Shown: positions 7,358-42,309 of the stretch, in pieces
How the letters are laid out: the number at the start of each line of letters is the position of its first letter
How positions within the stretch are numbered: the first letter of the stretch is position 1
Virus record (IMG/VR): IMGVR_UViG_3300036778_000017
Coordinates: 1 to 64,000 of that record
Strand: one strand, 5' to 3'
Origin: a virus
Taxonomy: Duplodnaviria; Caudoviricetes
Length of the DNA: 64,000 bases
Program-made: the position numbers and the translations under genes
Notes under the pieces: generated by a model
What the model was told of the DNA's origin: nothing
The model's database searches: none
What the model saw: the letters and a program-made list of their open reading frames with translations, nothing else

Positions 7358-7359
7358 CT

Positions 7360-26998: not shown

Positions 26999-27019
26999 GC
27001 CAGTACTCCATTTCGTGGC

Positions 27020-27102: not shown

Positions 27103-27728
27103 TCAGTGAATTCGGTTACCGTGACACATTGAAGTGGCGGACTATTACGACCAGAAGTAGGAAACCAGCTGCTAGGTGCGGGGGCTAATGCGCTAATGGG
27201 GCGCGGCCTAAATGCGTAGCAACTACCTATCTAACCCTTGCTTGGTTGCTGCCGTGTGTCGCGAGCGCGATCGGAACGGACCGGCCACTGAGGGCCCTGA
27301 GCAAACCAGATGGAGGCTATCTGGAAGGGTGCTGCCGTGTAGGGGCGTTGGCCGGGCACCAGCCGGTAGGCACAACCTAGCACGCCCCGGGCGGCCCGGC
27401 GACGCACTGGTGGACATGGTTAACAGATCACTGCCAAGGGGCGGCCCGGGGCGACCCAATACGCGCATATATAAAGGCTGGAGCAGGAGCGGCCCCAAAG
27501 TGGCTACAGGGGCAGCGCCCAGCTGCGCGGGCCGCACCAGCGGCCACTCTATGGTCCGCGCGGACCGTCCTGGGACCCGTGGCGCGGACCCGGGGCGGCC
27601 CGACCGGACGTTAACCCTTTCTTAACCACGTTCACAATATCCTCCTAGGCAGGCCCCGGGCAACCCGGGCAGGCTGGTGCCTGCCCCGCCGCGCTGGTGC
27701 GGTTGGGATAACGCAAGGGTAGTAGCCA

Positions 27729-27977
27729 ATGGCCATACGAATGTCGGAGAAGGAAGTGCGGCGCTGGATGAAACACGATCAGGCAAGCCGCGATGAGATG
27801 CTTGGAATATACTGGGAGGCAACGGAGAAGGGAACACGGCACGCCATGCTGACGGAGGGCATGAGGATTGCACATATCCGGTTCCTTCGTGATCAGCTTC
27901 TCGAGTGCATGAAGAAGGGCGAACACCTGTACGTCGAGAAGGGCACACCGAAGCAGGGCAGCAAGCCGATCGTCTGA
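27729..27977 (+). CDS. Hypothetical protein (82 aa)
   Basis: Lone plus-strand ORF followed by a terminator. Confidence 0.55.
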   Translation: MAIRMSEKEVRRWMKHDQASRDEMLGIYWEATEKGTRHAMLTEGMRIAHIRFLRDQLLECMKKGEHLYVEKGTPKQGSKPIV

Positions 27978-27981
27978 AAAT

Positions 27982-30144
27982 CTAGGCAGCAAGTAACTCA
28001 GGAGCCCGGCCCTTGCCGGGCTTTCTTGCGTCTGAGAACGGATACTTGGCCGTTCCCCACGTCTCGCCATACTCCTCGTCAACGCGCATCGGCACGCTGA
28101 TTCTGATCGCGTTGCGCATTATCTCACCAATGGCCTGCCCGTCCTTCTCGCGTGTCAGCGAGAACGCGAGCTCATCGTGCATCTGAAGCATCGGTATGAA
28201 GCCAGCCCGGGCGCACATGGCCATAGCCTTCTTCGTCTGGCGAGCAGCGGAACCCTGGATCAAGCGGTTCATCGCCTTGCGCGTGTCGGCACGGCGAAGC
28301 TTCTTGCCGAACCACGGATGGCCCTTGGTCTCGCAGCGCTCGAGCGCCTCCTCCAGTCGGCAGCTGTTCATGGCGAACTTGTACGCATAGCCGCGCCGCT
28401 TCTCCTCACGGTCCAGCCACTTCGGCTCAAAGTCATCGAAGTGCGATCGCGCCTTGTCGATCATGCGGATGTATCCGCGGTCCTCGGCATAGCCCTGACA
28501 CAGCGCGTTCAGCTGCTTGACGAACGGCATCTCGCCGTCGTACTGCCCCATCACCTGCTCCGCCTCATCAAGCGTCATGCCGGTCATGGCAGCAAACTTC
28601 TTGACCCCCGCTCCGTACGCCTTCGCGAAGTTCACGTCCTTGGCGCGGCGTCGAGTGAGACCAGTCATCTCGACCACCAGATTGTGGAAGTCGGTGTTCG
28701 GGTCACTCAGGTACTTGGCCACGGCCTCGTCGGCCTTCTTGCAGCCGAGTAGAGCAGCGTAGTGCACGATCAGGCGATACTCCTGCTGCGAGTAGTCCGG
28801 AGCGAACCACAGCTGCCCCCTCTCCGGGAGGAACGCCATGCGCAGATACTTCGCGATCATCTCCGTCGTGTGCCAGCCCTCCACCGGGTCCGGCCGAGAT
28901 GGCATCTGCTGAAGCGGGGGTTCCGAATAGCTGAACCGATGCGAGCGTGTTCCACCGTCCTCAGTCTTGAACTGATTGATGTTGGCGTGTATGCGGCCCT
29001 CGTACACTGAGTTCTTGAGATACGCCCTGACGAACTTGGTCGCGGCCTCGTGGCACTGCTTCGCCTCTGCTATCGCCCGGGGCAGCGGATGCTCGGACGC
29101 GCGCATCCAGTCCTTGCTGAACTCAGTCTCTACCTCGCCGTCCTCGTCCTCGCCGCGCATGTACTCTTCTTCATCCACACCGTGGACCTGACATGCCTGG
29201 ATGAGCCATGACTTCTGGCGTATCTCGTCGATGGACACTCTCTGCTTCGTGATGTCGTATATCTTGTTGAGCGCGAATTGATACTGCTTCATGAGCTCGT
29301 TCTCGAGCCAGTCCAGCCTCTCCTCGTTGACGCGGACACCACGCTTGCGCATGGCGTGCACCACCGGGATCAATTCCATCTCTAGATCGTAGGCACCTGT
29401 CAGGTCCTGCTCCTCGATCTGCGGTACCATCTTCTCGAATGCCAGCAAAGTCGAGCGCGCGTCCTGTTCGGCATACGGTCCCACGTATCTGGCTGGCATC
29501 TTGGCGAGATACTTCTTGACGTCGTCGCCCTTGTATCCGAAGCTGAACGCTGCGTCTCGCAGCATTGCCTCGTCCTTGCGCTCTACACCACACCACTCAG
29601 CAATGGAGTCCAGGCTGTACGCACTCTTCTGTCCCTTCTTGGCCCTGCGGTTCTCATCAATCATCATGGCCTGACAGCCGATGTCATTGATGAACTCGTA
29701 GTCCGGTAGCTCGAGACCGAGGCCGCCGCTGTACTCTCCGGCGTTGAACCATCCTAGATCATATCCCGCGTTGCAGAAGATGCGACGCTGTCCCTTCTTG
29801 GCCCTCAGCAGATGCTGGACCCACTTCTTGGCTCGCGAGCGATCGAAGCAGTTCGTGTCCGGATGTTCGATCGGCACGTAGATCGAGCGGACCTCTCCGC
29901 CCTGTCTCCATGCCGCTGACACACCGGCTATGTATCCTCCAGCTGAGCGAGAGTTGAACGCCCAGCCCGGTCCTGCTCCTCGTATTATACCATTGTCCAG
30001 TTCCTCGCTGTCTATCGCCACGTCCTGGACACGACTGAGGTCTGGCAGTTCCCCCGGCACGACCCAGCTGCTCTCTGGCGTTATCAGGGGCATCTGGCTC
30101 GGATCCAGCTTTGTTCTGCGCGGCTTGATGGATCTTGTCTTCAT
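27982..30144 (-). CDS. polA: DNA polymerase, family A, with 3'-5' exonuclease domain
   Basis: Exonuclease motifs IDSE, NAGYD, YAEQD; motif A PDYSQQEYR, motif B RRRAKDVNFAKAYG, motif C MHDEL. Confidence 0.95.
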   Translation of the reverse strand: MKTRSIKPRRTKLDPSQMPLITPESSWVVPGELPDLSRVQDVAIDSEELDNGIIRGAGPGWAFNSRSAGGYIAGVSAAWRQGGEVRSIYVPIEHPDTNCFDRSRAKKWVQHLLRAKKGQRRIFCNAGYDLGWFNAGEYSGGLGLELPDYEFINDIGCQAMMIDENRRAKKGQKSAYSLDSIAEWCGVERKDEAMLRDAAFSFGYKGDDVKKYLAKMPARYVGPYAEQDARSTLLAFEKMVPQIEEQDLTGAYDLEMELIPVVHAMRKRGVRVNEERLDWLENELMKQYQFALNKIYDITKQRVSIDEIRQKSWLIQACQVHGVDEEEYMRGEDEDGEVETEFSKDWMRASEHPLPRAIAEAKQCHEAATKFVRAYLKNSVYEGRIHANINQFKTEDGGTRSHRFSYSEPPLQQMPSRPDPVEGWHTTEMIAKYLRMAFLPERGQLWFAPDYSQQEYRLIVHYAALLGCKKADEAVAKYLSDPNTDFHNLVVEMTGLTRRRAKDVNFAKAYGAGVKKFAAMTGMTLDEAEQVMGQYDGEMPFVKQLNALCQGYAEDRGYIRMIDKARSHFDDFEPKWLDREEKRRGYAYKFAMNSCRLEEALERCETKGHPWFGKKLRRADTRKAMNRLIQGSAARQTKKAMAMCARAGFIPMLQMHDELAFSLTREKDGQAIGEIMRNAIRISVPMRVDEEYGETWGTAKYPFSDARKPGKGRAPELLAA
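28003..28027 (+). terminator. Intrinsic terminator
   Basis: AGCCCGGC-CCTT-GCCGGGCT-TTCTT. Confidence 0.65.
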
Positions 30145-30320
30145 CTGAACAGCTTGTCTAACAGAGGATACCACGCCACGCCGACGTAGATTATGAACGT
30201 GTACGTGATGTTGAACACCGTGACACTATTGGTCTTGCTGTGCACGTACAGAGGAATGACGATCGCAAAACCCGCGACCGTCACGTAGTAGTAAGCTCGT
30301 ACGAGAGCCTCGATGATCAT
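30141..30320 (-). CDS. 59-aa two-TM protein (not in track)
   Basis: MIIEALVRAYYYVTVAGFAIVIPLYV...FIIYVGVAWYPLLDKLFR; overlaps both neighbours (TGATG/ATGA). Confidence 0.55.
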   Translation of the reverse strand: MIIEALVRAYYYVTVAGFAIVIPLYVHSKTNSVTVFNITYTFIIYVGVAWYPLLDKLFR

Positions 30321-31390
30321 CAGTTGGGCTCACGCGCCCAGTGACTGAAGGTCTCAGACAGCTTGTACTTTCCGTCGCCATCGTCCTGATAGTACATGAA
30401 CTTGAAGTCCTGCCGACTCTCGTCGTACTCCTTCGAGTTCATCTCACGTATCAGCCTCGGGAAGTTATCGTCGATGCTCTCTGGAACGTGCTGCCTCTTG
30501 AGCGCCCAGCGATTGTCTTTTACGTACTCGTAGACATGCGCCAGTTCCCTCGGACAGTGGTGCGCCCCAACTATCGGCTCCAGCTGGTAGACACCAGATG
30601 CCCGCACCGTGTAGAACATGTCGGCCACTGCGCCGACCCTGATCTTCAGCGCGTCGTAGTACGGCTGGTCTATCACCCACGGAACGAGGCTCTCGTGCTG
30701 CTCGCCACCATCCGGCCCCCGTTCCTCTCCGATATCCCTCGCAACCGTGGCGTCGTCGATGACGTCGGCGGTAGGCGGGGGCTCGGCAGGTGGATAGAAC
30801 ATGGCGCGAACTCGAGCCTCGACCTCCTCTCGAGACAAGCCCTTGTCGTCGGCTATCATCTGATACACGTCGGTTTCTGGCTGGTTGTACGTGGACTCGT
30901 ATGTCCTGCTCTCAGGTTCTACGACGCCGCGTGATATCATCTCTGCCTCGACGAGAATGAGATATCTGCGAAGATCGCGACACACCGCCAGCACCGTCCC
31001 GTCCTCACCCTTGGGCTTCTCCTCGATCTTTGCGAAGATATCCTCGGACGTCAGGCGATCCCTGAGCAACTCCAGGATCATCATGGTCGCTTCGATGCTG
31101 CCCGGCAGATCTAACTTGATGCGCTGCCCGTAGTGAACGAAGTTGCGGAACGCGCCGATGGTGCAGTGAATGTTCTCCATCGTCTTGACGTGATCTGGAA
31201 ACTCCTTCGGAGCCATCATCACGAGCAACCGATCGATGTTGCGCTTGGCCATGAACCACGCGCTGCGACCGCCGCTCAGCTTCCAGCTTCCCTGATACGT
31301 CGCCTCCTTGTTCTCCAGCACGGCGCAGTCAGAGAGCGCCACGCTCTCGAGGAAGTTCATGTGGTCCATGTTATGTTCTTGTCGTGCCAT
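30320..31390 (-). CDS. Nucleotide-modification-associated protein (Nmad1/DUF1599-like, all-alpha NTP-pyrophosphatase-like N-terminus)
   Basis: KEATYQGSWKLSGGRSAWFMAKRNIDRL...DLRRYLILVEAEM; located in the base-modification cluster. Confidence 0.55.
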   Translation of the reverse strand: MARQEHNMDHMNFLESVALSDCAVLENKEATYQGSWKLSGGRSAWFMAKRNIDRLLVMMAPKEFPDHVKTMENIHCTIGAFRNFVHYGQRIKLDLPGSIEATMMILELLRDRLTSEDIFAKIEEKPKGEDGTVLAVCRDLRRYLILVEAEMISRGVVEPESRTYESTYNQPETDVYQMIADDKGLSREEVEARVRAMFYPPAEPPPTADVIDDATVARDIGEERGPDGGEQHESLVPWVIDQPYYDALKIRVGAVADMFYTVRASGVYQLEPIVGAHHCPRELAHVYEYVKDNRWALKRQHVPESIDDNFPRLIREMNSKEYDESRQDFKFMYYQDDGDGKYKLSETFSHWAREPN

Positions 31391-31946
31391 ACTCTGTCTC
31401 CATCTGGGTGCGTGTCTTCATGTAGCGGTGTATCGCCGGGATCAGTGACTCGTGATCCCGGTACTCCTTGGTGTCTCTCATGCCCTCTAGATCGATGAGA
31501 TTGGCAGACACGGCGTTCATCATGCGATCGATGATCGTGATGGCGTACTTGTTGCCCATGTTGTACTCGCGCCAGCCGTGCTCCCACATCTCGATGTTCT
31601 CGCATGCCTTGAACACGTGGCGCTCGAACTGTGAGAGTGGATGCTTCAGCTGAGGAACACCGATTCGCTCGTTCTGCAGCTTCTCCACGATGTTCTCGGC
31701 CTTCTGCATCGCAGGCCGGAGCTCGCCGATCATGATCTTGAACGGGTACGGTATGTCGCCGGCCATCTCGCCCATGTCGTGCTTCACCGTGTAGATCAGA
31801 ATGTGACGTGGCGCTGATGGCCACACCGTTAGAATGATGCGCAGGATCTGCCACGAGTGCTCGCCTACGGACTGCTGATTATGGACCGCCCACGTGTGAT
31901 AGCGCCGGATTTCTCCTGACGCCCTCGGGTCCTCCGTGAGGTTCAT
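31371..31946 (-). CDS. HD-domain 5'-deoxynucleotidase (YfbR-like)
   Basis: IRRYHT...QSVGEHS...KHDMGEMAGDIPYP; ATGA-coupled to the TS-like gene. Confidence 0.85.
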   Translation of the reverse strand: MNLTEDPRASGEIRRYHTWAVHNQQSVGEHSWQILRIILTVWPSAPRHILIYTVKHDMGEMAGDIPYPFKIMIGELRPAMQKAENIVEKLQNERIGVPQLKHPLSQFERHVFKACENIEMWEHGWREYNMGNKYAITIIDRMMNAVSANLIDLEGMRDTKEYRDHESLIPAIHRYMKTRTQMETEYGTTRT

Positions 31947-33010
31947 CGGGACCTCGGGTTCGTGCGATGCTCGAACCACTGGATGACAGCCTGTCGCCAG
32001 TCCTCGGCCTCGATCATGAACGCCATGTCGCGGGCGGAGTGGCGCATGGCAGACTTCCAGCGATTGTGCGCGATGAAGATCGGCTCCGCGGTATTGCGGA
32101 ACCATGAGTTCTTGTAGTCGTGCACCGTGGTCTCGACGCCCTCTGTCACGAGGTTCTTCTGCCACTCCATGAACTTCTTGAGATCAGCGTCGAAGAAGTC
32201 CCATTCCTTGGCCATGGGCAGCGCTCGGATCTTCAGGCCCTCGTAGGTGCTCAGTGTCGGCTCGGTCCCTACCTTCTCGAGCGTCTCCTCGTACGCGTGA
32301 TAATTCCAGGACATCTGGTACATCTTGCCGACCAGCACGCCAACCCGGCCTGCCATGTACTCCTGCAAGATGCTGAAGTGAACGGCGTTGGCACCATACG
32401 CCCCGAGCACGATATCGTTGCTCCTGCACGAGATGAACATGTCCAGGAATGGCAACGGTTCGTCAGCGAAGACCTCCTTCCGAACCCGGAAGTAGACGTG
32501 AGTATTGCACGGCCGATCCTTCCAGACGCCATTCAGGTCGTTGGCTCCGTACTGAATATCGCACTCGCCGACCCTGCATCCCTGCTCGCGGGCATCCCAC
32601 ATCTGCAGAACGCACTGTCTGTCATCGTCCCTGAAGCGGAGGCGCTGAACGATGTGCTCCAGCTGATCGAAGCCCAGCGCCTGTCGCCATCGATGACCAT
32701 ACGCGCCGTGAACGCGGCCGTCCTCCTCGGCGAACCGAGTACCGAAGTCCGTGATGTATCTGTTCAGGGCGCTCACGTCGTCGCGCCCCGACAGCATCCA
32801 TAGCGACTCGAACAGATGGAAGAACGGATTAGCCCCGCGCTTCTGGTCGAAGAGCACGCGCTGGGTCGGCTTGCGGTACACGCTTGTCACCGGCATCGAC
32901 ATCACGCGCACCGGGCCGTTTCTGCTCGTCTCCCTTCGTCCCTCCGCGCCCATCAGACGCATGCCGCGCCAGTATAGCTCGTTGACGTCCTCACCCTCAA
33001 TTACGTGCAC
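31943..33010 (-). CDS. Thymidylate-synthase-family enzyme, probable dUMP hydroxymethylase
   Basis: RNG, NPFFHLFESLWMLSG, AYGHRW, catalytic PCN, CRSNDIVLGAYGANAVHF with Asn at the dUMP-specificity position; YHAY. Confidence 0.85.
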   Translation of the reverse strand: MHVIEGEDVNELYWRGMRLMGAEGRRETSRNGPVRVMSMPVTSVYRKPTQRVLFDQKRGANPFFHLFESLWMLSGRDDVSALNRYITDFGTRFAEEDGRVHGAYGHRWRQALGFDQLEHIVQRLRFRDDDRQCVLQMWDAREQGCRVGECDIQYGANDLNGVWKDRPCNTHVYFRVRKEVFADEPLPFLDMFISCRSNDIVLGAYGANAVHFSILQEYMAGRVGVLVGKMYQMSWNYHAYEETLEKVGTEPTLSTYEGLKIRALPMAKEWDFFDADLKKFMEWQKNLVTEGVETTVHDYKNSWFRNTAEPIFIAHNRWKSAMRHSARDMAFMIEAEDWRQAVIQWFEHRTNPRSR

Positions 33011-33308
33011 TTGGTCCTCCTTCCTTGCTCTCCTGAATGATCTGATGCAGCGCTGCCGGAGTGGTCCGCGACATCTTGTCAATGTGCTTCGCGACCGCGT
33101 TGATGGTCTTGGTCTCCTGAAGATACAGCGTCTCATCGTAGGACAGCACTGTCACGTGCACCAGCCTCGCGACGATCTGCTCGACCGCGAATGCTATCAT
33201 CTCCGGACACAGCCCCTCGAAGGTGTCGATCGCGTCGCATACCACCTGCTCAGCGTAGTCTTTTATGACCTGCTGCTTCTCAATGTCATCGATACATCTA
33301 CACAGCAT
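32997..33308 (-). CDS. Hypothetical protein
   Basis: ORF tiled within the cluster. Confidence 0.45.
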   Translation of the reverse strand: MLCRCIDDIEKQQVIKDYAEQVVCDAIDTFEGLCPEMIAFAVEQIVARLVHVTVLSYDETLYLQETKTINAVAKHIDKMSRTTPAALHQIIQESKEGGPSARN

Positions 33309-33756
33309 TGTAGAGCTCCTCTAGGAGCGCTGCCACCAGCGCTCTGTTGTTCTCGTCATTGTACCAGAAATTCCTGCCGCTCGGATGCGGGATCTGCCGC
33401 CACGTCGAGCCCCCGATCACCTGCGGATGGAGCAGGAGGCGGGGGTGGCCGAACGCGGCGACTGTGTCAGCGCCGAGGAGGACGATGACACGACCACTTC
33501 CGAAGAACTCGCTGTACAGTCTGTCGGCTCCCTCACGAGCCATCTTCTTGTTGAAGATCCTTGCGTTCATGACGTTGCGCCTGTCGAAGCGATCGAGATA
33601 CTGCTGACGGCGCACGTCAGGCACTCTCGTCTCGAGCATCTTGAACAGGCGATGTCCAGTGCATCCCTCAGGCGCTGGGAACAGAGCATACTTGGGGTCG
33701 TCGTGAAGAGGATTGTTCATCCCGATCAGGACCGGTCTCTTGTCTACTTTCTTCAT
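33298..33756 (-). CDS. Uracil-DNA glycosylase superfamily protein
   Basis: VLIGMNNP (motif A-like), VIVLLG, IPHPSGRNFWYN (motif B). Confidence 0.65.
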   Translation of the reverse strand: MKKVDKRPVLIGMNNPLHDDPKYALFPAPEGCTGHRLFKMLETRVPDVRRQQYLDRFDRRNVMNARIFNKKMAREGADRLYSEFFGSGRVIVLLGADTVAAFGHPRLLLHPQVIGGSTWRQIPHPSGRNFWYNDENNRALVAALLEELYNAV

Positions 33757-33819
33757 GCTCTTATTCTCGCCTGCCTCGTGTTCCGGTACAAGCAACCCCT
33801 GCGGGGCTGTGCATAACTT

Positions 33820-34769
33820 TTACTTGAGACCCATGAAGATCAGGTTGTCAACGGCTACGCGTCTCTTGTCGTGCTTCAGGCCGAGGTCGTCCATTGCCTT
33901 GAAAAGCCTGATGGTCACGCGCCACGCCTGCTCGACCATCATCTGCTGTTGTGTGTCCTGAGGCTCCATGGAGTATTGAATGGCCATCTCCCTCGCGATG
34001 GCTGGATCGAGCTCCTGTCTCACGACATTGCGATGCCAGTTCTCCAGCTGCGCTGCCAGAATGATTATGTTCATGTGATGCGCGATCGGTGGAAGGTCTG
34101 CAATCTTGATGCTAGTCATCTCAACAACTCCACGAGGCGTTCCATGTGATCAGCGGCGATCCTCGTTTTCTCGGCCGCGTACTGTATCCTCTTCATGCTC
34201 ATCTTTCGCGTGGCCAGCATGGTCACCAGCTGGAAGCCAGCCTCGCTGTGGACCTTGTGCGCGAGCACGAGCTCCTTCTCAATGTCTACTGGCGAACTCG
34301 CGGAGGAAGGATTTGTCTTCTTCCGAGAGGTCTTCTCTGTCGACTGCTCGAGCGACAAGCGCATCTGCCGCTCCGTCACCGTGGACGCGGTCGTAGAAGC
34401 GCTTTGCTTTTTCGACGCGACGCCTCTCGTGACGGTTCGTGCTCGTGACGTCCCTCCACGTGGTGTCTTCGCCTTGCTGGCCACGGTTGATCTTCTCCAG
34501 TTGTCTCTTGGCATTGACCCTGCGACGCTCCTTGTCGCTGAGCGTTGAGTAGCTCATCTGATAGAGACCTCCATTCCATTCACGATCATGATCTTTTCTC
34601 CAGAACCTCTCATGACGAACGCCTCGAATGTCTTGAGCTCCCACTGGAGCGCACCCTCGACGGCGTGCCGCTTCCCATCCTTGGTCTCGATCACTAGTCG
34701 CACGTCCTCAGACTGTCCGTTGGCGATCAGCCAGACCCTGAGTGCCTCCACTATCATGGAGAAATTCAT
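33820..34769 (-). other. Hypothetical genes 33820-34119, 34116-34514, 34554-34769
   Basis: Tiled ORFs. Confidence 0.5.
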
Positions 34770-35011
34770 GACGTCCTCCACGGCAGGCTCTGGTCGAATG
34801 CCTTGCTGAAGTGTCGTATCCTGCAGACCTGGAAGTGCCTCTCTGCCTGTCGATCGAGACACCAGCCCACGATGTACCACTGCGAGCCATCGTGAGGATA
34901 ATACTTGCTCTCGAGAAACCGAATGCCGGTAGGCACCACGCGCCGTTCCTCGTCATATCCCTCGTGATTGACATAGTCGAATGTCACGACTTTCCCGTCC
35001 CAGACGCTCAT
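34766..35011 (-). CDS. Stand-alone WYL-domain protein
   Basis: VTFDYVNHEG...RRVVPTGIRF...QWYIVGWCLDRQAERHFQVCRI. Confidence 0.75.
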   Translation of the reverse strand: MSVWDGKVVTFDYVNHEGYDEERRVVPTGIRFLESKYYPHDGSQWYIVGWCLDRQAERHFQVCRIRHFSKAFDQSLPWRTS

Positions 35012-35348
35012 GTGTCGTCACCTCCTCTACACTCCTTGCAGATCCAGGCAGCCGTGCCCATCTGTGTCGTGTACATGTGACACGAGCGCCATCGACGACA
35101 GCACTCGCACTCGATCTCGATCGGAGCCTTCGTGAGCCTGCTCATCGCGGCATCTCCATCACGAAGTAGACGTCGTCTGGCCGCTCAGCGATGGCTGTCT
35201 TCATGGCAGCTGACGCCTCCTTGGCCGTGGCGTGAGCCGATAGGAAGCGTGCCAGCACCACCCGGAACGGGAACTCCTTGTCCGGTCTGCGTTGCGTGGC
35301 AGCTACCTTCTTCGCAACGGCCTTCTTGTTCACCTTGGGCTTCTTCAT
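35008..35348 (-). other. Two small genes: 35008-35145 (CxCC...CxxC, not in track) and 35142-35348 (Lys-rich)
   Basis: ATGA/TGATG-coupled; MSRLTKAPIEIECECCRRW...WICKECRGG. Confidence 0.55.
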
Positions 35349-35944
35349 CACTTCCTCCCCAGAAGCAGAATGTGCCAGTTGCCGCCGCGAAACAGGACCG
35401 TCTCCTCGACGTCCCATCCCAGCTGCCTGATCAGGGCCAAGAACGGACGCTTGGCGTGCTCCGACGTGTTCGACTTCGGCAGGTACTTCTCGCCGAAGCG
35501 AATGGTGCACACGATGTTCTTCTTGGCGACGCGGCAGATCTCCTTTACCGTGGCACGCATGCCGTCCTGATCGATCAGGTCCAGAAAGCGCACGCAGATC
35601 ACCATGTCTGCCGACTTGTCCTTCACCTCTAGGTTCGTGGCAGATCCCTGCTCCAGCTGAATGTGCTTCGCCTTGGCCCCGCGAAGTTTCTTCTTGGCGA
35701 GGTCGAGCATCGCCTCGCTGATATCGATGCCGAGCACCGTGCACGATGCCTTCGCATAGTCCTCGAAGAACCGGCCGGTTCCCACTGGAACGTCCAGGAC
35801 TGTCCTTGGTTTCAGCTCCGCGATCCACGCTCCAACCGTCTCGTTCTCGAGGTTCCAGCGCGCCTGCTTCTTGCGAATGTCCTCGTACGTCTCGGCCTTG
35901 CGGCCGCGATACTTCTTGCTCGTCTGCTGCAGACTGACCATCAC
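35348..35944 (-). CDS. Class I SAM-dependent methyltransferase
   Basis: VLDVPVGTGRF, GIDISEAML, ADMVICVRFL; coupled to the kinase gene. Confidence 0.85.
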   Translation of the reverse strand: MMVSLQQTSKKYRGRKAETYEDIRKKQARWNLENETVGAWIAELKPRTVLDVPVGTGRFFEDYAKASCTVLGIDISEAMLDLAKKKLRGAKAKHIQLEQGSATNLEVKDKSADMVICVRFLDLIDQDGMRATVKEICRVAKKNIVCTIRFGEKYLPKSNTSEHAKRPFLALIRQLGWDVEETVLFRGGNWHILLLGRK

Positions 35945-36486
35945 TCATCTCCATCGTGCGGCCCGAGCCACCGCCTGATCACCTCGAAGCAGGCGTCTCG
36001 GTCGCCCACCACTGTCTCGCAGTGAAAGTTCACCGCGTCTCGGTGAACCTTGTCGTACGTCTTCTTGATCGACTTCTCGGCGATCCTGTGCCCACGCTTG
36101 CGCACGTCTCTGAGGCACGTGGCCACGTCCGTGTTGAGCACGACGACGCGAACTTCGAACTTCTCAGCCACGAGCTCGTTGACACGAGCCACGCCATCGC
36201 TCATGTTCTTCCCCTCCATGATGACGTCGTGGCCAGACCGAGCCGCCCAGCGCGCGATCTCGTATGCCTCGTCAAGCGACTTCAGCGTGTCGATGCCCCC
36301 GTTCGCAATCTGGTAGTGACCGGGGGTCACGAGACACTTCCCAGCGACGGTTCGGCCGTGCAGCGTGTACAGCGGCTTGACGCGAGGCGGAGCCATGAGA
36401 TCGCGATGCTTCGTGTAGAGCGCCACGACGCGTCGCACCAGATGGCTCTTGCCGGAGCCAGATGTTCCCCTGACTGATATGATCAT
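35941..36486 (-). CDS. P-loop kinase (5-hmdU DNA kinase / nucleotide kinase-like)
   Basis: IISVRGTSGSGKS Walker A, GGIDT, VIMEG, CLRDVRKRG lid. Confidence 0.8.
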   Translation of the reverse strand: MIISVRGTSGSGKSHLVRRVVALYTKHRDLMAPPRVKPLYTLHGRTVAGKCLVTPGHYQIANGGIDTLKSLDEAYEIARWAARSGHDVIMEGKNMSDGVARVNELVAEKFEVRVVVLNTDVATCLRDVRKRGHRIAEKSIKKTYDKVHRDAVNFHCETVVGDRDACFEVIRRWLGPHDGDE

Positions 36487-37478
36487 AGCCCTGCCGCCAG
36501 CCTCGCCTTGTCCAGTTGGTCCACGAGGCGAATGTAGAAGTCGCCACGGTTCCACTCGCGACGCTGCTCCCTGCCGATGTCCTCGCGATTGGCCATGAAG
36601 CGCTTCACGTCGATTGCCTTGCTGACCACGTACGGATCGGGATTGAACCCGGCCTTGCGAAGCATGCTGCCCGACTCTGGCTGGAACACCATCGGCAGTC
36701 CCGCGCTCAGCATCTCGTAGAACCGATTGGCCGGCGAGTGGAACTCCTCGCTGGACTTGCGGTCCTCGATGTACAGGCCGAGGCCAAACGAGCCGAGCGC
36801 ACCGTAGAAGTTCTCGCCGATGGCTCCCATGTGCCGACACAGCGGATACTTCTTGGCGAACTTGTCTACCGGACTACTGATCACAGTCTCGACCGCAGGG
36901 CGAGTGAAGTAGCGATCGAACAGCGGCACGCGACTAGACTTGCCGCTCCCGTCGCGGAACGAGCCGTAGTACAGAAGCGTGTCCTTGGCATCGGCGCGCC
37001 GCTTCTTGATCTTGCTCTCGCTGTACTGCTGGTCGAACGTCAGCATGTTCCAGTTGACGTAGTGACTGCCGGGCAGCGTGTACCACTTCTCGCACGTGCT
37101 CCAGAAGATCGTGCGCTCCTTCCCCTCCTTCTTTCGCGTGACGAACGCCTTGCGGAATGGTGACTCGGCACCAGCATCGTCCTTCGGCGGGATGATGGTG
37201 TAGTCGTTCTGGACCCACACCACGCGCTTCGCACCGAGGATCGCTCGAGACAGAGGCTCAAGAACCTTGCTGAACCCATACGCGCCGTTCACTATGATCA
37301 GCACGTCTAGGTTCGTCATGTCGCCGATCTCAGCACCGCACACCAGCGGAATGTCAGACATGGTCATGTCGCCGAGTGTCTTCTGCAGCCAGCGCGCTAT
37401 TCGCACGCTCGCGACCATGCTGTTCTCGCTGATGCGCACGAAACTGAACATCGCGATTTTCTTCTTTCTACCCGCCAA
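36483..37478 (-). CDS. GT-B glycosyltransferase resembling T4 DNA beta-glucosyltransferase
   Basis: LLYYGSFRDG (compare T4 BGT LIYGGSFRSG) and GLYIEDR...ANRFYEMLSAGLPMVF (compare LIIGDK...LRVWETMAS); comparison from memory. Confidence 0.65.
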   Translation of the reverse strand: MAGRKKKIAMFSFVRISENSMVASVRIARWLQKTLGDMTMSDIPLVCGAEIGDMTNLDVLIIVNGAYGFSKVLEPLSRAILGAKRVVWVQNDYTIIPPKDDAGAESPFRKAFVTRKKEGKERTIFWSTCEKWYTLPGSHYVNWNMLTFDQQYSESKIKKRRADAKDTLLYYGSFRDGSGKSSRVPLFDRYFTRPAVETVISSPVDKFAKKYPLCRHMGAIGENFYGALGSFGLGLYIEDRKSSEEFHSPANRFYEMLSAGLPMVFQPESGSMLRKAGFNPDPYVVSKAIDVKRFMANREDIGREQRREWNRGDFYIRLVDQLDKARLAAGL

Positions 37479-37487
37479 TTCTTCCTC

Positions 37488-37888
37488 CTACCCGCTGAGT
37501 GTTTCAGTTGCCGCCCCGACGTACTGTTCCCAGCTGTCGTCAGGTATCTTGAGAATGATGACCCTGAGCCAAGTCCAGTGCAACATCTCGACTGGATTGA
37601 TCAGCTTGTTCTTGTGATCATCAATCAACTTCAGTGCTTCTTCCTTTGTCATCTCTTGAATTCCCACGTACAGGTCGCCTTGTCGCCCGGGCGAACGTCA
37701 GGCTTGTTGTCACAGCGCACGGCGGTTCGGCTGTCCACGAACGTGATCCACCAGCCGTCCGATACCTCCCTAGTGCTGGCGTCCGGCCCCGTGCCTCCGG
37801 CCCACTCAGTCCGGAAGCGCTCGACGACGTCCTTCACCGTGCAGACCTGCACGTACTGCGTGATCTTCTCGCTCACTACCTCAGGCAC
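37488..37888 (-). other. Two small genes: 37488-37652 (not in track, AT-richer) and 37649-37888
   Basis: MTKEEALKLIDDHKNKL...; ATGA overlap. Confidence 0.55.
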
Positions 37889-38825
37889 GATACACTCCTC
37901 TTGGCTTGCCCTCCTTCAGGCGAACACGCTCGTACTTGTCGAACTCACAGAGCGTGTGCTCCACGTCACGCATCTCCCAGTCCGGCCACTCCTTCTTCGT
38001 CATGCCCATGGCCACGCGCATCCGGCTCCAGTGCTCGGCTCTGGAGCTCTCGTCCAGGATCACTACCATGTACTTCAGCATCTCGTCGCGTCCGCTGAAC
38101 TTCGCGGTCTTGTCGCGGCCCATCACGCGGTTCAGCCCCCGCTTGCACCCGGGACCGGGGGATGCCCACGTGTCGATGTCGTTCGCCTTGTTGAGCAGGA
38201 ATGTGTGACGCAGGTCAGTCACGATCTCGTACGAGTGGAAGTTGCCGAAGTATGGCTGCTCGCGCAGCCACTCCCAAGCCCCCTCGAGACTGTACTCGTT
38301 TCTTCGTGGATTGTCGTTCAGCCAGTGCCGCCAGTCGCTCTTCCTCCAGAAGTTCTGCAGGACCCAGAGCACGCCGTCCAGCTTCGTCATGCCAGCCGGC
38401 GAGGAGATGATGTAGGCACCAGTCACGTACGGACCGCGCGGCGTTCTGCTCACCAGCGCGCGCTTCAGCGGCCTGACGTCGCCCCTCGCAGCGAACTCCT
38501 CGAAGGCGCCGAAACCCTTCTTGAGATCATTGTCCTGGAACATCGCAACGCCACTCTCGATCCTGTTCAGCATGCGAAACACGACGGTCGCGAGCAGAAC
38601 GCGCTCGTCCTTGTTCCTGTGCAGCGGCCCGCGAACGTTGTCTGCGAACCACTTGGTTGTCTTGTCCAGCTCCCGGAAGACGTTGGTGAACCGGAAGCGG
38701 TAAAGGATAGGATCATCAGTCTCCCACTGCGGTCGCAGTCGCTTGTAGAGATAGATCTGGTGACGGGCCTGCGCGTAGTTGAAGAAGCGACGCAGGCCCT
38801 CTCTCGGCAGCTTGATCTCCTTCAC
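37881..38825 (-). CDS. aG/PT-PPlase clade 1 / 5-hmdU DNA kinase helical-domain protein
   Basis: FFNYAQARHQIY...TDDPILYRFRFTNVFRELDKTT...FRMLNR...YEIVTDLRH...PGPGCKRGL...EHTLCEFDKY. Confidence 0.85.
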   Translation of the reverse strand: MKEIKLPREGLRRFFNYAQARHQIYLYKRLRPQWETDDPILYRFRFTNVFRELDKTTKWFADNVRGPLHRNKDERVLLATVVFRMLNRIESGVAMFQDNDLKKGFGAFEEFAARGDVRPLKRALVSRTPRGPYVTGAYIISSPAGMTKLDGVLWVLQNFWRKSDWRHWLNDNPRRNEYSLEGAWEWLREQPYFGNFHSYEIVTDLRHTFLLNKANDIDTWASPGPGCKRGLNRVMGRDKTAKFSGRDEMLKYMVVILDESSRAEHWSRMRVAMGMTKKEWPDWEMRDVEHTLCEFDKYERVRLKEGKPRGVYRA

Positions 38826-39118
38826 TTCTTCCTCCACGCACCGAGGTTCTGCCGACGCCACTCCTGCGCCCGACTGGCCATGTCCCGAGCCTGATCGACC
38901 TGCGGCCTGTCAGTCAGTGGTCTCTCGCCCACGAGGATCTGGTACTCGCGGAAGTCTGCCCACTCCATCACGATCCTGTGGAACATTGGATCTCGACCGA
39001 GCAGCGTGAAGCGCGGCTCACCGGGCAGTGCCCGGTGATAACAGTCGTTGGGATCGATCTTCGCGGACATGATGTCCTCCTCCAGTTCGAGTTGAGCGAG
39101 TGGGTCATTTGGCATCAT
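38822..39118 (-). CDS. Conserved hypothetical phage protein
   Basis: CYHRALPGEPRFTLLGRDP motif; coupled to both neighbours. Confidence 0.6.
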   Translation of the reverse strand: MMPNDPLAQLELEEDIMSAKIDPNDCYHRALPGEPRFTLLGRDPMFHRIVMEWADFREYQILVGERPLTDRPQVDQARDMASRAQEWRRQNLGAWRKK

Positions 39119-39639
39119 GCTGATGCCTTGTGTCTGATGATCTCCATTCTGGCCCACGCCAGCCAAGAGTCAACGATGATCGACATCAGACCTCGAACAC
39201 CGTCCGGCAGTTCTCCCATAGGGGTCTTTTGTCCATCGAGTAATTCCTCCAGGAACTCCTCAACTTTCTGGGGAGTTGTCTTCATCTTGAACCTCGGATC
39301 AACGAAGTTCCAATCTGAGTTCATGATGATTTCTACACACTCCTGGACATTTTTCCCGTCTCGTATGTTTATCACACGCTCCCTATCTGCCTCCAGCTTT
39401 GTAACCTGACCAGATGGTCGTGATGGCTTCGGCTTCTTGTCTGTGGATGGCAAAGAGGACTTGGATAGTGGGAGCTCGTCACGAAACAACGACCTGATGA
39501 AATCCCGCATGGATGTGCCGCCCTCCTGCTCGTTTATCCTCCGCTGAAGCTCGAAGGACGACTCTGCATTGCGATTATAGATTAGGCGGTGAAGAAGTGT
39601 CATCGCGTCGATCTCGGTTATCTTTTCTTTTCTGGTCAT
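39115..39639 (-). CDS. Low-GC hypothetical protein (moron-like)
   Basis: About 42-47% GC in sampled 60-mers; CAGGAG RBS and AT-rich leader. Confidence 0.65.
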   Translation of the reverse strand: MTRKEKITEIDAMTLLHRLIYNRNAESSFELQRRINEQEGGTSMRDFIRSLFRDELPLSKSSLPSTDKKPKPSRPSGQVTKLEADRERVINIRDGKNVQECVEIIMNSDWNFVDPRFKMKTTPQKVEEFLEELLDGQKTPMGELPDGVRGLMSIIVDSWLAWARMEIIRHKASA

Positions 39640-39717
39640 GTATATAGTCTCCTGTTTGATGGACGATGATTGATGATTGATGTAGTCCTAGACTTTCTCG
39701 TTATTCCACCTCCTTTT

Positions 39718-40191
39718 CTATCCGAGCGGCCCGAGTACCAAGAAGTGAGTTGGATGAACCTCGATCTCGTACCACTCGTCGTTCGTCATCGACCACTTCC
39801 CAGCGAGGAAGCAGCCTCCAACTTCCTTCGAGTGCGGGCTGTCGCCAGCACCATCCTGCCAGTACCCCATCCCGTATCCCTCCGTGTTGCAGTCGAGGTC
39901 CACGAGCTCTGGGGCCTGCAGAAACAACTCTGCCTGATACTTGTCGCGGAGTTCCTCGATGGGATGCCACGGCAGGATGTCCGGCTTGTTGCCCTTCATC
40001 TCCGAGACAGCCATCTCGAATAGTCTCTGGTGATCAGGCCCAACGAGCTCGTCGGGGACACCGCCGAAGTGCAGGATCACCTGACGCCATGTCGTGTCGA
40101 GCGCGCGACGGTACACGTTGTTCAGCGGGCGGTTCTGGACCTCCGCCCGCCAGCGCTCGACGGCCCAGATCAAGTGGACGCTTGTCGTCAT
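39718..40191 (-). CDS. Hypothetical protein
   Basis: Tiled ORF. Confidence 0.55.
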   Translation of the reverse strand: MTTSVHLIWAVERWRAEVQNRPLNNVYRRALDTTWRQVILHFGGVPDELVGPDHQRLFEMAVSEMKGNKPDILPWHPIEELRDKYQAELFLQAPELVDLDCNTEGYGMGYWQDGAGDSPHSKEVGGCFLAGKWSMTNDEWYEIEVHPTHFLVLGPLG

Positions 40192-40727
40192 ACCAAGTTA
40201 CCTCTCAGTTTCTTGTGGCCCATGCTCACGCACAGTACCTGATGCTTGCAGTCGGCAAGCGCGTTGTGATACGTTCCCTGTCGCTTGATCGAGAACGTGT
40301 TGAGGCCGGACACTCGATAGATCGTGCGCGTGTCCTGCGCCTCGTGGAAACGCCACGGCTGTTTCTTCCCCAGCGCTCGATAAACCCAGGACAGAAGTGG
40401 CTCGTCGAAGTTCGCGCCCTGCGACCAGAACCATCGACCACCGCGACCGAAGAACACCGCGAACTTCTCGACGACCTCCTCGATGGGTAGCTGTCCCTCG
40501 GACAACTGCTTGTTCGCGAGCGCGTGCTCCGGCTTGGCCCAGAATGCCACTGTGCCCTCCTCCTTGTACATCTTCAGCTTCTTGCACGAGGTCTCCGTGA
40601 TGTTGCAGTAGAACTCGTCGCCCAGCTGCCCTGTCTCCGGATCGAAGAACACGGCACCGAGGCTGCGGATCATGGAGCCCGGCGAGGTGCCCCACGTCTC
40701 GAGATCTACCATTACGTCGTTCAGCAT
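40188..40727 (-). CDS. DEDD 3'-5' exonuclease (Rv2179c / ExoVIII-like)
   Basis: VMVDLETWG, WSQGANFD, DTRT, HNALADC. Confidence 0.85.
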   Translation of the reverse strand: MLNDVMVDLETWGTSPGSMIRSLGAVFFDPETGQLGDEFYCNITETSCKKLKMYKEEGTVAFWAKPEHALANKQLSEGQLPIEEVVEKFAVFFGRGGRWFWSQGANFDEPLLSWVYRALGKKQPWRFHEAQDTRTIYRVSGLNTFSIKRQGTYHNALADCKHQVLCVSMGHKKLRGNLV

Positions 40728-40740
40728 TTCGTTCTCCTGT

Positions 40741-42309
40741 TCAGACCCACTGACACTCGTTCTCGGTCTGTGATGCCACTATGGTTAGACGCTGTCGCGC
40801 CCGGGTTACTCCGACGTACCAGACTCGCCTCTCGTCGTCGGGGTTCTTGTCGACCTCCTTCGCCGTGCGGTACGCCATCTCTGTCATGAGAACGACGTGG
40901 TCCGCCTCAGCGCCCTTGGCCGAGTGAATGGTGGACAAGCGCACGCGAGGCGCATGCCGCAGTTTCTCACCGCGTCGCCGCGCGGCGAGCAGATAGCTCA
41001 TGTCGGCGCCGGGCAGCCGGTCCAGCGCCTCGTGCCAGATCTTGTTCGGCGTCATGAGAAGGCCGCCGTAGTTGATCAGGTCCTTCATGGAGATCGCGAG
41101 CTCCTCGTCATCGCCGAAACCCTGAAGCCCCTTGTATCCGTGCTTCACCTGCACCGTGTCGCCGACCTTCGGGCTGATCATGCTGTACATCGCGCGGGCG
41201 TCTCCGAGAAGCACGTGCTTCCCGGCTCGCAACCTCTCCCACGTCTCGGCTGCCCGCAGCGCGTTCATGGGTATCGAGCTCTTGCCGTTCATCTCATACA
41301 CAATCCCCCGCTCGCGCATGATCGGCTCGACCTGTTCTCGAAGAATGTACTGGTTTCTGGCGAGCACCAGAACGGGGGCCGTCGGGGAGTCGTCGCGCCA
41401 CTTGTCGTTGACGTCTGCGTCGTCGATCTCGGCCACGCGCTCGATGGTTCCCTTCCCCTTGCGGGCCGCCCACTCCTTCTCTCTGCGATGCCGCAGTCCC
41501 ATGATGATGCCGGCCGACACGCGCTGTATCTCCTTCGGGCATCGCCATGACTGCCCGAGTACTGACACCGTGCCGTCCATGCTCACGAACGTCTCGATGT
41601 CGGCACCAGCCCATCGGTAGATGGCCTGATCATCGTCGCCGGCCACCACCACGCGCCTGACACCGTCCGCCAGCTGGAAGATCACGCGCCACTGAAGATG
41701 TGATAGATCCTGCGCCTCGTCGACGAGGAGCACGTCTAGGTTGAGCCTGATGCCGGACGCCACGAACTTGCTGAGCATGTCCGTGTAGTCTATCAGCGCC
41801 TTGTCCTTCTTGTAGATGGCCAGCGCCCTCGACACTCGGTCAACCTCGACCCAAGGCAGACCGTCGTCGTCCTCGTCGTACAGGGCGCGGAGCGGTATGC
41901 CGCGGATACGCGACAGGTTCTCCATGAACAGAATGCGATCCCCGAGCTCGAAGTTCGACATGATGCCGTCGTTGGACCAAGCCCGACCCGTCACCTCGAC
42001 GCCCGCGAACTCTGCGAACTCGTTGAGGGCAGGCCCAGCCAGAACCTGAGCCGATCTCAGGCCCAGCTGGCGAAAGCACATGCTGTGAATGGTCTGGAAG
42101 TAGGGCAGGTCGTCCTTCTCCAGACCGAAGCGCTTCATGGCTCGCGTCCGAGCCTCCTCCGCTGCGCGCTGAGTGAAGGAGACGTAGCCGATACGGTTCG
42201 GCTTCGTCCCCCTCGCCAACTCCTCGTCGAGGATGTTCAGCAGCGTCGTCGTCTTTCCGGTGCCTGGAGGCCCGAGGACGATGTCTGGGAAGAACTCACT
42301 CACGCGCAC
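40741..42309 (-). CDS. SF1 helicase, UvrD/Rep-like
   Basis: GPPGTGKT, LVDEAQD, AGDDDQAIYRW, STIHSAKGAEAD, VWYVGVTRA. Confidence 0.92.
   Translation of the reverse strand: MRVSEFFPDIVLGPPGTGKTTTLLNILDEELARGTKPNRIGYVSFTQRAAEEARTRAMKRFGLEKDDLPYFQTIHSMCFRQLGLRSAQVLAGPALNEFAEFAGVEVTGRAWSNDGIMSNFELGDRILFMENLSRIRGIPLRALYDEDDDGLPWVEVDRVSRALAIYKKDKALIDYTDMLSKFVASGIRLNLDVLLVDEAQDLSHLQWRVIFQLADGVRRVVVAGDDDQAIYRWAGADIETFVSMDGTVSVLGQSWRCPKEIQRVSAGIIMGLRHRREKEWAARKGKGTIERVAEIDDADVNDKWRDDSPTAPVLVLARNQYILREQVEPIMRERGIVYEMNGKSSIPMNALRAAETWERLRAGKHVLLGDARAMYSMISPKVGDTVQVKHGYKGLQGFGDDEELAISMKDLINYGGLLMTPNKIWHEALDRLPGADMSYLLAARRRGEKLRHAPRVRLSTIHSAKGAEADHVVLMTEMAYRTAKEVDKNPDDERRVWYVGVTRARQRLTIVASQTENECQWV

Follow-up and report, generated by a model that had tools for sequence, protein, structure and literature searches.

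A probable phage thymidine-hypermodification gene cluster encoding a T4 BGT-like glycosyltransferase, a DNA-base kinase homologue and a methyltransferase

Introduction

Thymidine hypermodifications are a means of protecting phage DNA against restriction enzymes and certain CRISPR nucleases; the enzymes that make them serve as tools for labelling and sequencing 5-hydroxymethyluracil (5hmU). To our knowledge, all solved pathways run from a kinase through an amino-acid:DNA transferase (AADT) to tailoring enzymes. Here we describe a gene block in the IMG/VR virus record IMGVR_UViG_3300036778_000017 (Caudoviricetes). The record is 73,980 bp long, with a GC content of about 60%, and its completeness is estimated at 96%; the analysed stretch, referred to below as the window, is its first 64,000 bp. 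The block at 30320-38825 on the minus strand is one coherent thymidine-hypermodification cluster ahead of the gene for a family A DNA polymerase (PolA). It encodes a thymidylate synthase (TS)-family enzyme, a homologue of 5-hydroxymethyl-dU (5hmdU) DNA kinases, the helical protein HMUDK_hel (aGPT-Pplase clade 1), a methyltransferase (MTase) dependent on S-adenosylmethionine (SAM) and a glycosyltransferase (GT) resembling T4 BGT. On balance, by a modest degree of confidence, we favour the view that the GT makes a direct O-glycoside of 5hmU in DNA, a chemistry that only homology, fold and gene context stand behind.

Organization of the gene block

Nearly all genes of the window lie on the minus strand, and those from 38825 to 27982 (-) form an unbroken chain in which neighbouring starts and stops overlap or abut (Table 1). 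An initial annotation, made from the nucleotide sequence without database searches, had listed the components of this block as co-oriented; nearly all of them were found where it had placed them, and all on the minus strand. When the entire block was compared by megablast with 50,697 phage records, no match was obtained. The phage is a distant relative of the HTVC023P and PaMx11 groups, and the closest cultured relatives of its PolA are those of HTVC023P-type pelagiphages (34%) and PaMx11-like phages (32%).

Table 1. Genes and open reading frames (ORFs) of the block, listed from 38825 down to 27982. GC3, GC content at third codon positions; RBS, ribosome-binding site; UDG, uracil-DNA glycosylase.
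Feature	Position	Strand	Basis
HMUDK_hel / aGPT-Pplase clade 1 protein, 314 aa	37881-38825	-	Pfam PF18723, E 4e-39
79-aa ORF between the HMUDK_hel and GT genes	37649-37888	-	High GC3, RBS; no Pfam family
T4 BGT-like GT-B enzyme	36483-37451/37478	-	AF2 fold match to T4 BGT
P-loop kinase homologous to 5-hmdU DNA kinase, 181 aa	35941-36486	-	Homology to PaMx11 gp49
Class I SAM-dependent methyltransferase, small-molecule type, 197 aa	35348-35941	-	Methyltransf_25, E 2e-19
68-aa ORF, basic N-terminus, coupled to the MTase stop codon	35142-35348	-	Read from sequence
Cys-rich ORF of 45 aa, zinc-ribbon-like, coupled to the ORFs on either side	35008-35145	-	Read from sequence
WYL-domain protein, 81 aa	34766-35011	-	Pfam PF13280, E 4e-12
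132-aa ORF	34116-34514	-	High GC3; no Pfam family
99-aa ORF	33820-34119	-	High GC3; no Pfam family
UDG-superfamily-like protein, 152 aa	33298-33756	-	GMNNP and HPSGRN motifs; weak Pfam UDG match
103-aa ORF	32997-33308	-	Weak homologues in L002-L004; no Pfam family
TS-family enzyme, 355 aa from GTG 33010	31943-33010	-	PF00303, E 9e-19
HD-domain protein, 191 aa	31371-31946	-	phrog_6047, E 7.5e-23
356-aa protein, no assigned family	30320-31390	-	Conserved N-terminal domain of ~120 aa
Family A DNA polymerase (PolA), 730 aa	27982-30174	-	PF00476, E 2e-39

The glycosyltransferase and its structural model

The GT gene starts either at TTG 37478, which has a good RBS, or at ATG 37451, the start called in the public collection (322 aa). 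Pfam, NCBIfam and PHROGs assign its product to no family, a PDB sequence-profile search gave nothing usable, and the family to which it belongs comprises at least 473 metagenomic members, all unnamed. An AF2 model built on 30 family members (pLDDT 92.6) had T4 BGT (1c3j, E 3e-9) and T4 AGT as its best PDB matches in Foldseek. Comparison by VIA gave a Z score of 20.2 with T4 BGT (1nzd), 297 of the 322 residues being aligned at an rmsd of 3.9 Å; T4 AGT followed at Z 16.7, which is 3.5 units lower, and all other GT-B enzymes scored 16.2 or less, about 4 units below T4 BGT. As modelled, the protein has a GT-B fold of two Rossmann domains, closest to that of T4 BGT, and is of the DNA-glycosyltransferase type, with transfer to DNA as its predicted activity, and the initial annotation was correct in calling it a BGT-like GT-B enzyme. 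A reading of the 331-aa gene as a divergent member of the ADDT family of amino-acid:DNA transferases was dropped on account of this clear GT-B fold.

Sequence identity between the GT and T4 BGT is only about 14%. The hhalign program pairs residues 156-281 of the GT with residues 181-305 of T4 BGT, that is, within the C-terminal domain only, at a low probability of 2.6%. In this alignment the motif YYGSFR..R falls on BGT 185-195 and D..R..YE on BGT 258-272, so that GSFR(166) lies on GSFR(191), D230 on D258, and R243..E246 on R269..E272. R166, R174, D230, R243 and E246 are invariant across the 30 family members, and the aligned stretch of T4 BGT contains Arg191, Arg195, Arg269 and Glu272, which we take to be its UDP-binding residues. 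Given the low hhalign probability, the match of the UDP-sugar site rests on the motifs plus the fold. Candidates for the general base are the invariant D83, right after the strand at 76-81, and D140.

GT-B enzymes are mostly not DNA enzymes, and the lower-ranked structural matches of the model include TarM, PimA, BshA and SenB. Together with the failure of Pfam and NCBIfam to recognise the protein, this would be in keeping with an enzyme that glycosylates a host or phage target other than DNA, for instance cell-envelope polymers or proteins, in which case the DNA would carry plain or phosphorylated 5hmdU. Such a target seems to us very improbable. The two T4 DNA glucosyltransferases stand clearly ahead of the other structural matches, the GT gene is embedded in a series of DNA-modification genes and translationally coupled to them, and its family adjoins two unrelated kinds of 5hmU-generating enzyme in dozens of viral lineages.

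Gene context of the glycosyltransferase family

The context of the family was examined in 80 IMG/VR loci encoding GT relatives, which were searched with iterated profiles of the cluster proteins and reduce to 61 non-redundant GT clusters. HMUDK_hel, the TS gene or the kinase is present in 34 of these clusters, the commonest arrangement being HMUDK_hel, GT and TS in direct succession, and a TS of the dUMP-hydroxymethylase type stands together with HMUDK_hel beside the GT in about 41 loci. The kinase was found in 15 of the 61 clusters, the MTase in 8 and an ADDT in none. A radical-SAM/SPASM gene occurs in 17 clusters, where it usually adjoins the GT gene, and some of these loci have neither TS nor kinase; for this reason the two genes look like a sub-module of their own. 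The closest relatives, L002-L004, whose GT is 70% identical, display the gene order of the window plus such a gene (Radical_SAM and SPASM, positions 10975-12018) between GT and kinase, which the window does not have.

Six loci in which only the GT had been recognised were probed with Pfam, and a ParB gene was found beside the GT in all six and a Tet_JBP gene as well in four. No C5 DNA methyltransferase is present in five ParB/Tet_JBP records, two of them complete. These loci fit the ParB-dependent T-dioxygenase class (PMC13229309). The GT family is therefore attached to two unrelated 5hmU-making systems, TS with HMUDK_hel on the one hand and Tet_JBP with ParB on the other, and this is the strongest argument for 5hmU in DNA as the acceptor. 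The earlier proposal of a sugar on 5hmU, drawn from the window, thus finds backing in the neighbours that the GT keeps elsewhere.

The complete direct-terminal-repeat (DTR) genomes behind two loci with HMUDK_hel, GT and TS (L033 and L020) contain no homologue of the kinase by a profile search whose positive control worked, although they may have a non-homologous kinase. Since such complete genomes have no kinase homologue, the GT is probably independent of prior phosphorylation.

The HMUDK_hel protein

HMUDK_hel matches PF18723 with 135 bits (cut-off 25) over model positions 4-278 of 281, and is 45% identical to PaMx11 gp50. Its AF2 model (pLDDT 89.5) is all-helical, with a fold like those of helix-hairpin-helix (HhH) glycosylases and AADTs; Foldseek returned nothing at E <=0.001. 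Among 48,161 PDB representatives, the top match by VIA is 8z2m, the PUGT gp46 of PaMx11 (220 residues), with a Z score of 10.8 that, for an all-helical protein, lies in the range where the program warns of a common arrangement. QNG1, a protein of queuine salvage, is effectively tied at Z 10.0, and HhH DNA glycosylases come next. Cys293-Glu294 is invariant in 25 diverse members of the family, and the sole stretch that hhalign pairs with gp46 (15 residues, probability 1.2%) places Cys293 on the catalytic Cys247. We considered HMUDK_hel as the ADDT itself and dropped this candidate, for it matches PaMx11 gp50 and not gp46, a proven glycine:DNA transferase that belongs to a separate Pfam family (PF18724). 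The genome contains no second HMUDK_hel paralogue.

HMUDK_hel is found with or without a kinase, a GT or an ADDT. Its clade accompanies all TS-route thymidine-hypermodifying phages examined, and it is absent from the Tet_JBP/ParB loci; it tracks the TS route, not the GT. It is also more than a kinase accessory, because two complete genomes have HMUDK_hel, GT and TS and no kinase homologue. In view of the superfamily classification of Iyer et al., as relayed in PMC5889632 and PMC8989533, and of the modest structural scores, HMUDK_hel could itself be a group-transfer enzyme.

This possibility gives rise to a different order of events, in which a linker precedes the sugar. The kinase would produce 5-phosphomethyl-dU (5-PmdU), HMUDK_hel, as an AADT-like transferase, would install the linker, and the GT would glycosylate and the MTase methylate it. 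In chemical terms, Cys293 would attack C6, the phosphate would leave and a nucleophile would add to the exocyclic methylene. The linker would be an amino acid, a polyamine or a hydroxylated group, and the product would resemble the thymidines of SP-15, YerA41 and Carin-5, which bear a linker and sugar, rather than a direct O-glycoside of 5hmU. The structural match to the glycinyltransferase gp46 and the pairing of the invariant Cys293 with Cys247 speak for this order, as does SP10, which makes alpha-glutamylthymidine with clade 1 as its only aGPT-Pplase, fused to the kinase (PMC5889632, Table 3). Moreover, IME392 and EP_H11, which encode distant GT homologues, are members of the SP-15-like group, whose thymidines are glycosylated via a linker (PMC13697223), and the MTase is confined to kinase-bearing clusters. 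However, gp55 of phage M6, a protein of the HMUDK_hel clade, is dispensable for glycinylation in vitro (PMC8989533), and the complete HMUDK_hel, GT and TS genomes without a detectable kinase would not provide the activated substrate. HMUDK_hel is also missing from the Tet_JBP/ParB loci that have the same GT family, and the Z score of 10.8 may reflect a common all-helical arrangement, just as the hhalign probability is low. Taken together, we judge it unlikely that a linker comes first.

A related and similarly doubtful idea is that HMUDK_hel is an active AADT paralogue which, with the kinase, GT and MTase, constitutes a minimal four-enzyme line to a composite thymidine derivative new to chemistry. 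This derivative might consist of a 5-methylene, either substituted or phosphorylated, with an O-methylated sugar on it, and the line, if true, would give aGPT-Pplase clade 1 a first function. The initial annotation had recognised no amino-acid:DNA transferase; this stands at the Pfam level, and is tempered by gp46 being the best fold match of HMUDK_hel, with Cys293 on Cys247.

The kinase and the coupled methyltransferase

The kinase is 35% identical to PaMx11 gp49 (E 4e-28, 186 residues), a proven 5-HMU DNA kinase (5-HMUDK; PMC8989533, Table 1). Its Walker A motif is GTSGSGKS, and its match to AAA_33 is weak. The kinase ATG overlaps the GT stop codon (ATGA), and the start of the MTase gene overlaps the kinase stop codon. 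Besides Methyltransf_25, the MTase matches Methyltransf_11 (E 6e-17); its matches to the UbiE, MftM and PmtA types are generic and all below the cut-off, and the nearest solved sequences include phospho-base N-methyltransferases, via generic class I similarity only. In the context sample, the MTase occurs only alongside the kinase, in 8 of 8 clusters and directly adjoining it in most of them, and in 0 of the 19 clusters that have HMUDK_hel or TS and no kinase; the lineages are related, and this co-occurrence is hence a lead rather than a statistic.

The translational coupling of GT, kinase and MTase via overlapping start and stop codons would suit a scheme with a phospho-sugar product. The acceptor of the GT would be 5-PmdU, or the kinase would phosphorylate the attached sugar, and the MTase would cap the phosphate as a methyl ester, giving a phosphodiester- or phosphate-bearing glycosylated base. 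The restriction of the MTase to kinase-bearing clusters points in this direction, as do the SP-15-type thymidine modifications, which join phosphate and sugars (PMC12686479, PMC13697223), and the phospho-base N-methyltransferases among the nearest solved MTases, with the generic character of that similarity borne in mind. Nevertheless, the GT family occurs kinase-free in complete genomes and in Tet_JBP/ParB contexts, and the nearest relatives of the kinase have 5hmU itself as their substrate. We found no literature precedent for a BGT-like enzyme with a phosphate acceptor, and a generic Methyltransf_25 domain does not reveal the specificity of the MTase. A phosphorylated sugar or acceptor of this kind appears to us decidedly unlikely. 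The target of the MTase, and the manner in which kinase and GT would share one hydroxyl, are matters of inference.

The thymidylate-synthase-family enzyme and nucleotide-pool genes

The TS-family enzyme scores 68 bits against PF00303 and matches phrog_5131 with an E value of 7e-87. It is 39% identical to PaMx11 gp51, the PCN motif of the catalytic Cys included, and the Asn in its GAYGAN motif stands opposite the Asp of MilA, a CMP hydroxymethylase, which upholds the earlier assignment of a dUMP-type Asn. The enzyme is a probable dUMP 5-hydroxymethylase; the hydroxymethyl product is predicted solely on the grounds that its TS orthologues come from phages dependent on 5hmdU and that the block also encodes a 5-HMUDK homologue.

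The HD protein is a homologue of PaMx11 gp52. The earlier assignment to HD proteins finds a strong match in phrog_6047 and a sub-threshold one in the YfbR-like family (E 2.6e-4); phrog_7076, a dATP triphosphohydrolase, matches at E 2e-6, and the protein is probably a deoxynucleotidase or dNTPase. The evidence for the UDG-like protein is weak and consistent: the Pfam UDG match (PF03167, E 0.034, 14.6 bits) is below the cut-off of 24.3, phrog_12275 matches at E 1.6e-19, and 24 of the 30 nearest clusters in the ESM Atlas lie within a UDG-carrying set (score 0.95). Its conservation extends to 10 related loci, where H124, P125 and G127 of the HPSG motif are invariant; a PDB profile search with it came back empty.

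The 356-aa protein has no match in Pfam, NCBIfam, PHROGs or the PDB profiles, and 13 of its relatives are likewise without a Pfam match. Its family was seen in 23 loci, and in many relatives the N-terminal domain (about 120 aa) is encoded separately, as a stand-alone gene adjoining the TS gene. The initial annotation had called it Nmad1-like, an identification that we could not confirm: PF07659 (DUF1599/Nmad1) has no match in the whole genome at E values up to 10 and none in 14 members of the family, and Nmad1/DUF1599 was dropped at the level of hidden Markov models (HMMs). A feature-similarity lead from ESM to DUF1599 (0.88) is unconfirmed by HMM. The WYL and PolA assignments, in contrast to this one, were clear (Table 1).

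Absence of transferase and tailoring genes

A six-frame search of the 73,980-bp record with PF18724 at E values up to 10 gave no ADDT match; the same search, as a positive control, recovers gp46 in PaMx11. The record has no gp46 homologue and no Radical_SAM domain (PF04055), and the CxxxCxxC motif is absent from every high-GC3 ORF. The absence of ADDT and radical SAM, first noted for the window, thereby extends to the whole 96%-complete record. No pyridoxal phosphate (PLP) enzyme, FAD lyase or acetyltransferase was found in a Pfam scan of about 60 of the larger ORFs of the window, exclusive of the large structural ones; the earlier statement that a PLP enzyme is missing holds within this non-exhaustive scan. 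Four complete relatives in which GT and kinase occur together have no ADDT either. Compared with the set of genes in the characterised pathways (M6, ViI, PaMx11, PhiW-14 and SP10), TS and kinase are present, and ADDT and radical SAM are absent.

Other genes of the block and the genome

Among the smaller ORFs of the block, the 79-aa ORF has a homologue in the close relatives L002-L004 (E 1e-30) and a weaker one in L006/L007, and conservation of the WYL gene extends to L002-L004 and L074. The genes at 40188-43414 (-), upstream of the modification block, encode a 3'-5' exonuclease of the Rv2179c-like type, a UvrD-type helicase and a NUDIX protein. A Pyr_excise pyrimidine-dimer DNA glycosylase domain of the T4 endonuclease V type (E 2e-22) is encoded at 16109-16777 (-), and a NusG/RfaH-like protein at 10950-11687 (-), upstream of the packaging genes.

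The portal protein (5276-7372, -; Phage_portal_3, E 5.5e-97) has a C-terminal Acb1 anti-CBASS domain at residues 540-684 (E 3e-32), and a counter-defence nuclease domain thus appears to be fused to the virion portal. Downstream of the portal gene, a family-2 (GT-A) glycosyltransferase match just under the cut-off (719-1600, -; E 1e-4) and a Methyltransf_24/TylF-like O-methyltransferase (2178-2777, -; E 1.7e-18) are accompanied by a 246-aa ORF without assigned function. Phage matches to the GT-A-like protein are confined to Tetraselmis viridis virus S20 and SI1 and one marine virus from a single cell. The genes at 719-2777 (-) may be a second glycosyl/methyl module, with DNA, the virion or the host surface as possible targets.

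Discussion

The present analysis leaves the outline of the initial annotation in place, that of a 5hmdU hypermodification cluster with a genuine T4 BGT-like GT, and softens two of its points, the lack of an AADT and the unusual character of the cluster. In the pathway that we favour, the direct O-glycoside of 5hmU would arise in two stages. Before replication, the TS-family enzyme would convert dUMP to 5-hydroxymethyl-dUMP, competing thymidine or uridine nucleotides would be cleared by the HD protein, probably with the 356-aa protein as well, and the UDG-like protein would handle stray uracil, roles that are suggested by family membership; PolA would then incorporate 5hmdU in place of T. After replication, the GT would flip out 5hmdU and transfer a sugar from a host NDP-sugar to the hydroxymethyl group, giving a base-J-like O-glycoside; the grounds for this step are fold, nucleotide-sugar motifs and gene context. 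The kinase would phosphorylate 5hmdU, probably at residues left unglycosylated, and HMUDK_hel and the MTase may further process the phosphorylated or glycosylated base, candidate reactions being methylation of the sugar or the phosphate and substitution or reduction of 5-PmdU. The virion DNA would carry a glycosylated, possibly methylated 5hmU derivative outside the chemically characterised thymidine hypermodifications, and its purpose would be protection from host nucleases.

Several points weigh against this pathway. No equivalent of the catalytic Asp100 of T4 BGT can be aligned in the GT, the hhalign alignment reaching the C-terminal domain only. No gene for NDP-sugar synthesis is present among the roughly 60 Pfam-scanned ORFs to point to the donor. 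The kinase and the GT would compete for one hydroxyl, which calls for a partition of sites or an ordering of steps, and HMUDK_hel appears to have retained the AADT family's catalytic-Cys motif, so that substitution of 5-PmdU may come first. The TS homologue may just methylate dUMP instead of hydroxymethylating it, and the acceptor atom may be that of a phosphate or of an installed linker instead of the 5hmU hydroxyl, alternatives that sequence does not separate. Finally, the phage is uncultured, and the cluster is known from its genes alone.

The window cluster and about 40 related viral loci suggest a second widespread output of thymidine hypermodification, a sugar placed on pool-derived 5hmU by a T4 BGT-like enzyme, and in this phage a DNA-base kinase and a methyltransferase come with it. 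If true, phages would have an equivalent of trypanosome base J reached by a different route, and the cluster would offer a 5hmU-specific DNA glycosyltransferase and a testable handle on the HMUDK_hel family. That HMUDK_hel follows the TS route and the MTase follows the kinase is a comparative lead in its own right.

Comparison with known systems

The closest characterised cluster is that of PaMx11, whose DNA modification derives from 5hmdU (PMC8989533). It encodes an ADDT/PUGT (gp46), an FAD lyase (gp47), an acetyltransferase (gp48), a 5-HMUDK (gp49), HMUDK_hel (gp50), a TS (gp51), an HD protein (gp52) and PolA (gp55), and its product is 5-AcNmdU. The window shares with it the kinase (35%), HMUDK_hel (45%), TS (39%), HD protein and PolA (32%), as well as the order TS-HD-...-PolA. 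However, the ADDT, FAD lyase and acetyltransferase are missing from the window, which has the T4 BGT-like GT and the SAM-dependent MTase instead, and HMUDK_hel is located upstream of the GT gene rather than between kinase and TS.

For the GT step, the closest functional analogue is T4, with its dCMP hydroxymethylase (gene 42) and b-gt. In both phages a GT gene lies beside the gene for a TS-family hydroxymethylase and near a polymerase gene, and T4 BGT (CAZy GT63; PDB 1c3j, 1j39, 1nzd) has its fold and nucleotide-sugar motifs in common with the window GT. The base differs, being 5hmC in T4 and, given the dUMP-type Asn, expectedly 5hmU in the window; T4 also lacks a DNA-base kinase, HMUDK_hel and a coupled MTase, all three of which the window has. 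Pyle et al. showed that T4 BGT-like phage GT-B enzymes put sugars on 5hmC, and found a ThyS gene on 28% of their mined GT-B contigs (10.1101/2023.12.21.572611). The characterised phage GT-B enzymes (GT53 and GT94) act on 5hmC, whereas the window GT is expected to act on 5hmU.

HTVC023P-type pelagiphages have genes for TS, aG/PT-PPlase1, a 5'-deoxynucleotidase and a putative glucosyltransferase beside PolA, described as a 'partner AMG' module (PMC9599517). The core set of the window and its position beside PolA are those of this module, the window PolA is closest to this group (34%), and AT-rich IMG/VR loci with HMUDK_hel, GT and TS in succession (e.g. L050, L053, L060 and L067) fit the description. 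With this core set known in pelagiphages (PMC9599517), and GT-B genes near ThyS already seen in bulk mining (10.1101/2023.12.21.572611), the term "unusual" that had been given to the cluster holds to a lesser degree. Nevertheless, the pelagiphage module is known by annotation, with neither product nor mechanism, and its description mentions neither a 5-HMUDK-type kinase nor a coupled MTase (PMC9599517); the window genome, at 60% GC, represents a clearly distinct lineage.

Glycosylated thymidines have been shown experimentally in three SP-15-like phages (PMC13697223; also PMC12686479). This group, in which sugar-bearing T is known or suspected, includes SP-15, YerA41 and Carin-5 and, by genome, EP_H11 and IME392 (PMC12686479, PMC13697223); its members are myoviruses of 110-180 kb with a UDG-fused PolA, and their modifications have a linker that is long, as well as phosphate and as many as five sugars. 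In the E. coli phage IME392, a distant GT homologue (26% identity) directly adjoins the genes for HMUDK_hel, a P-loop protein, the TS and the HD protein, an MTase gene lies close by, and the E. coli phage EP_H11 bears the same distant homologue; the PIG-L sugar deacetylase and BCCT genes of IME392 have no counterpart in the window. At record positions 26744-43787, the IME392 cluster (L005) reads MTase, a 302-aa unknown protein, a BCCT transporter, PIG-L (GlcNAc deacetylase-type), a 344-aa unknown protein, the distant GT, HMUDK_hel, an AAA_28 P-loop protein, TS and the HD protein. A 5-HMU DNA kinase has been reported as undetectable in the SP-15-like group (PMC13697223), and the AAA_28 protein beside HMUDK_hel is a candidate for it.

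In trypanosomatids, base J is made by the JBP1/2 thymidine hydroxylase and the glucosyltransferase JGT, and the chemistry predicted for the window does not differ from it, a sugar being attached to a 5-hydroxymethylpyrimidine of DNA at the hydroxymethyl group. JGT, however, has a GT-A fold and acts after the oxidation of T in DNA, whereas in the window 5hmU would come from the nucleotide pool via the TS-family enzyme. The distant members of the window GT family that adjoin Tet_JBP and ParB recall the phage GT-B enzymes associated with 5mYOX (10.1101/2023.12.21.572611). In the literature searched, we found no phage in which a sugar attached directly to TS-derived 5hmdU had been identified chemically, and no description of the kinase, GT and MTase combined without an ADDT. 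Thus, the cluster adds to a core set that is already known, and what is new in it is the presence of kinase, GT and MTase together without an ADDT.

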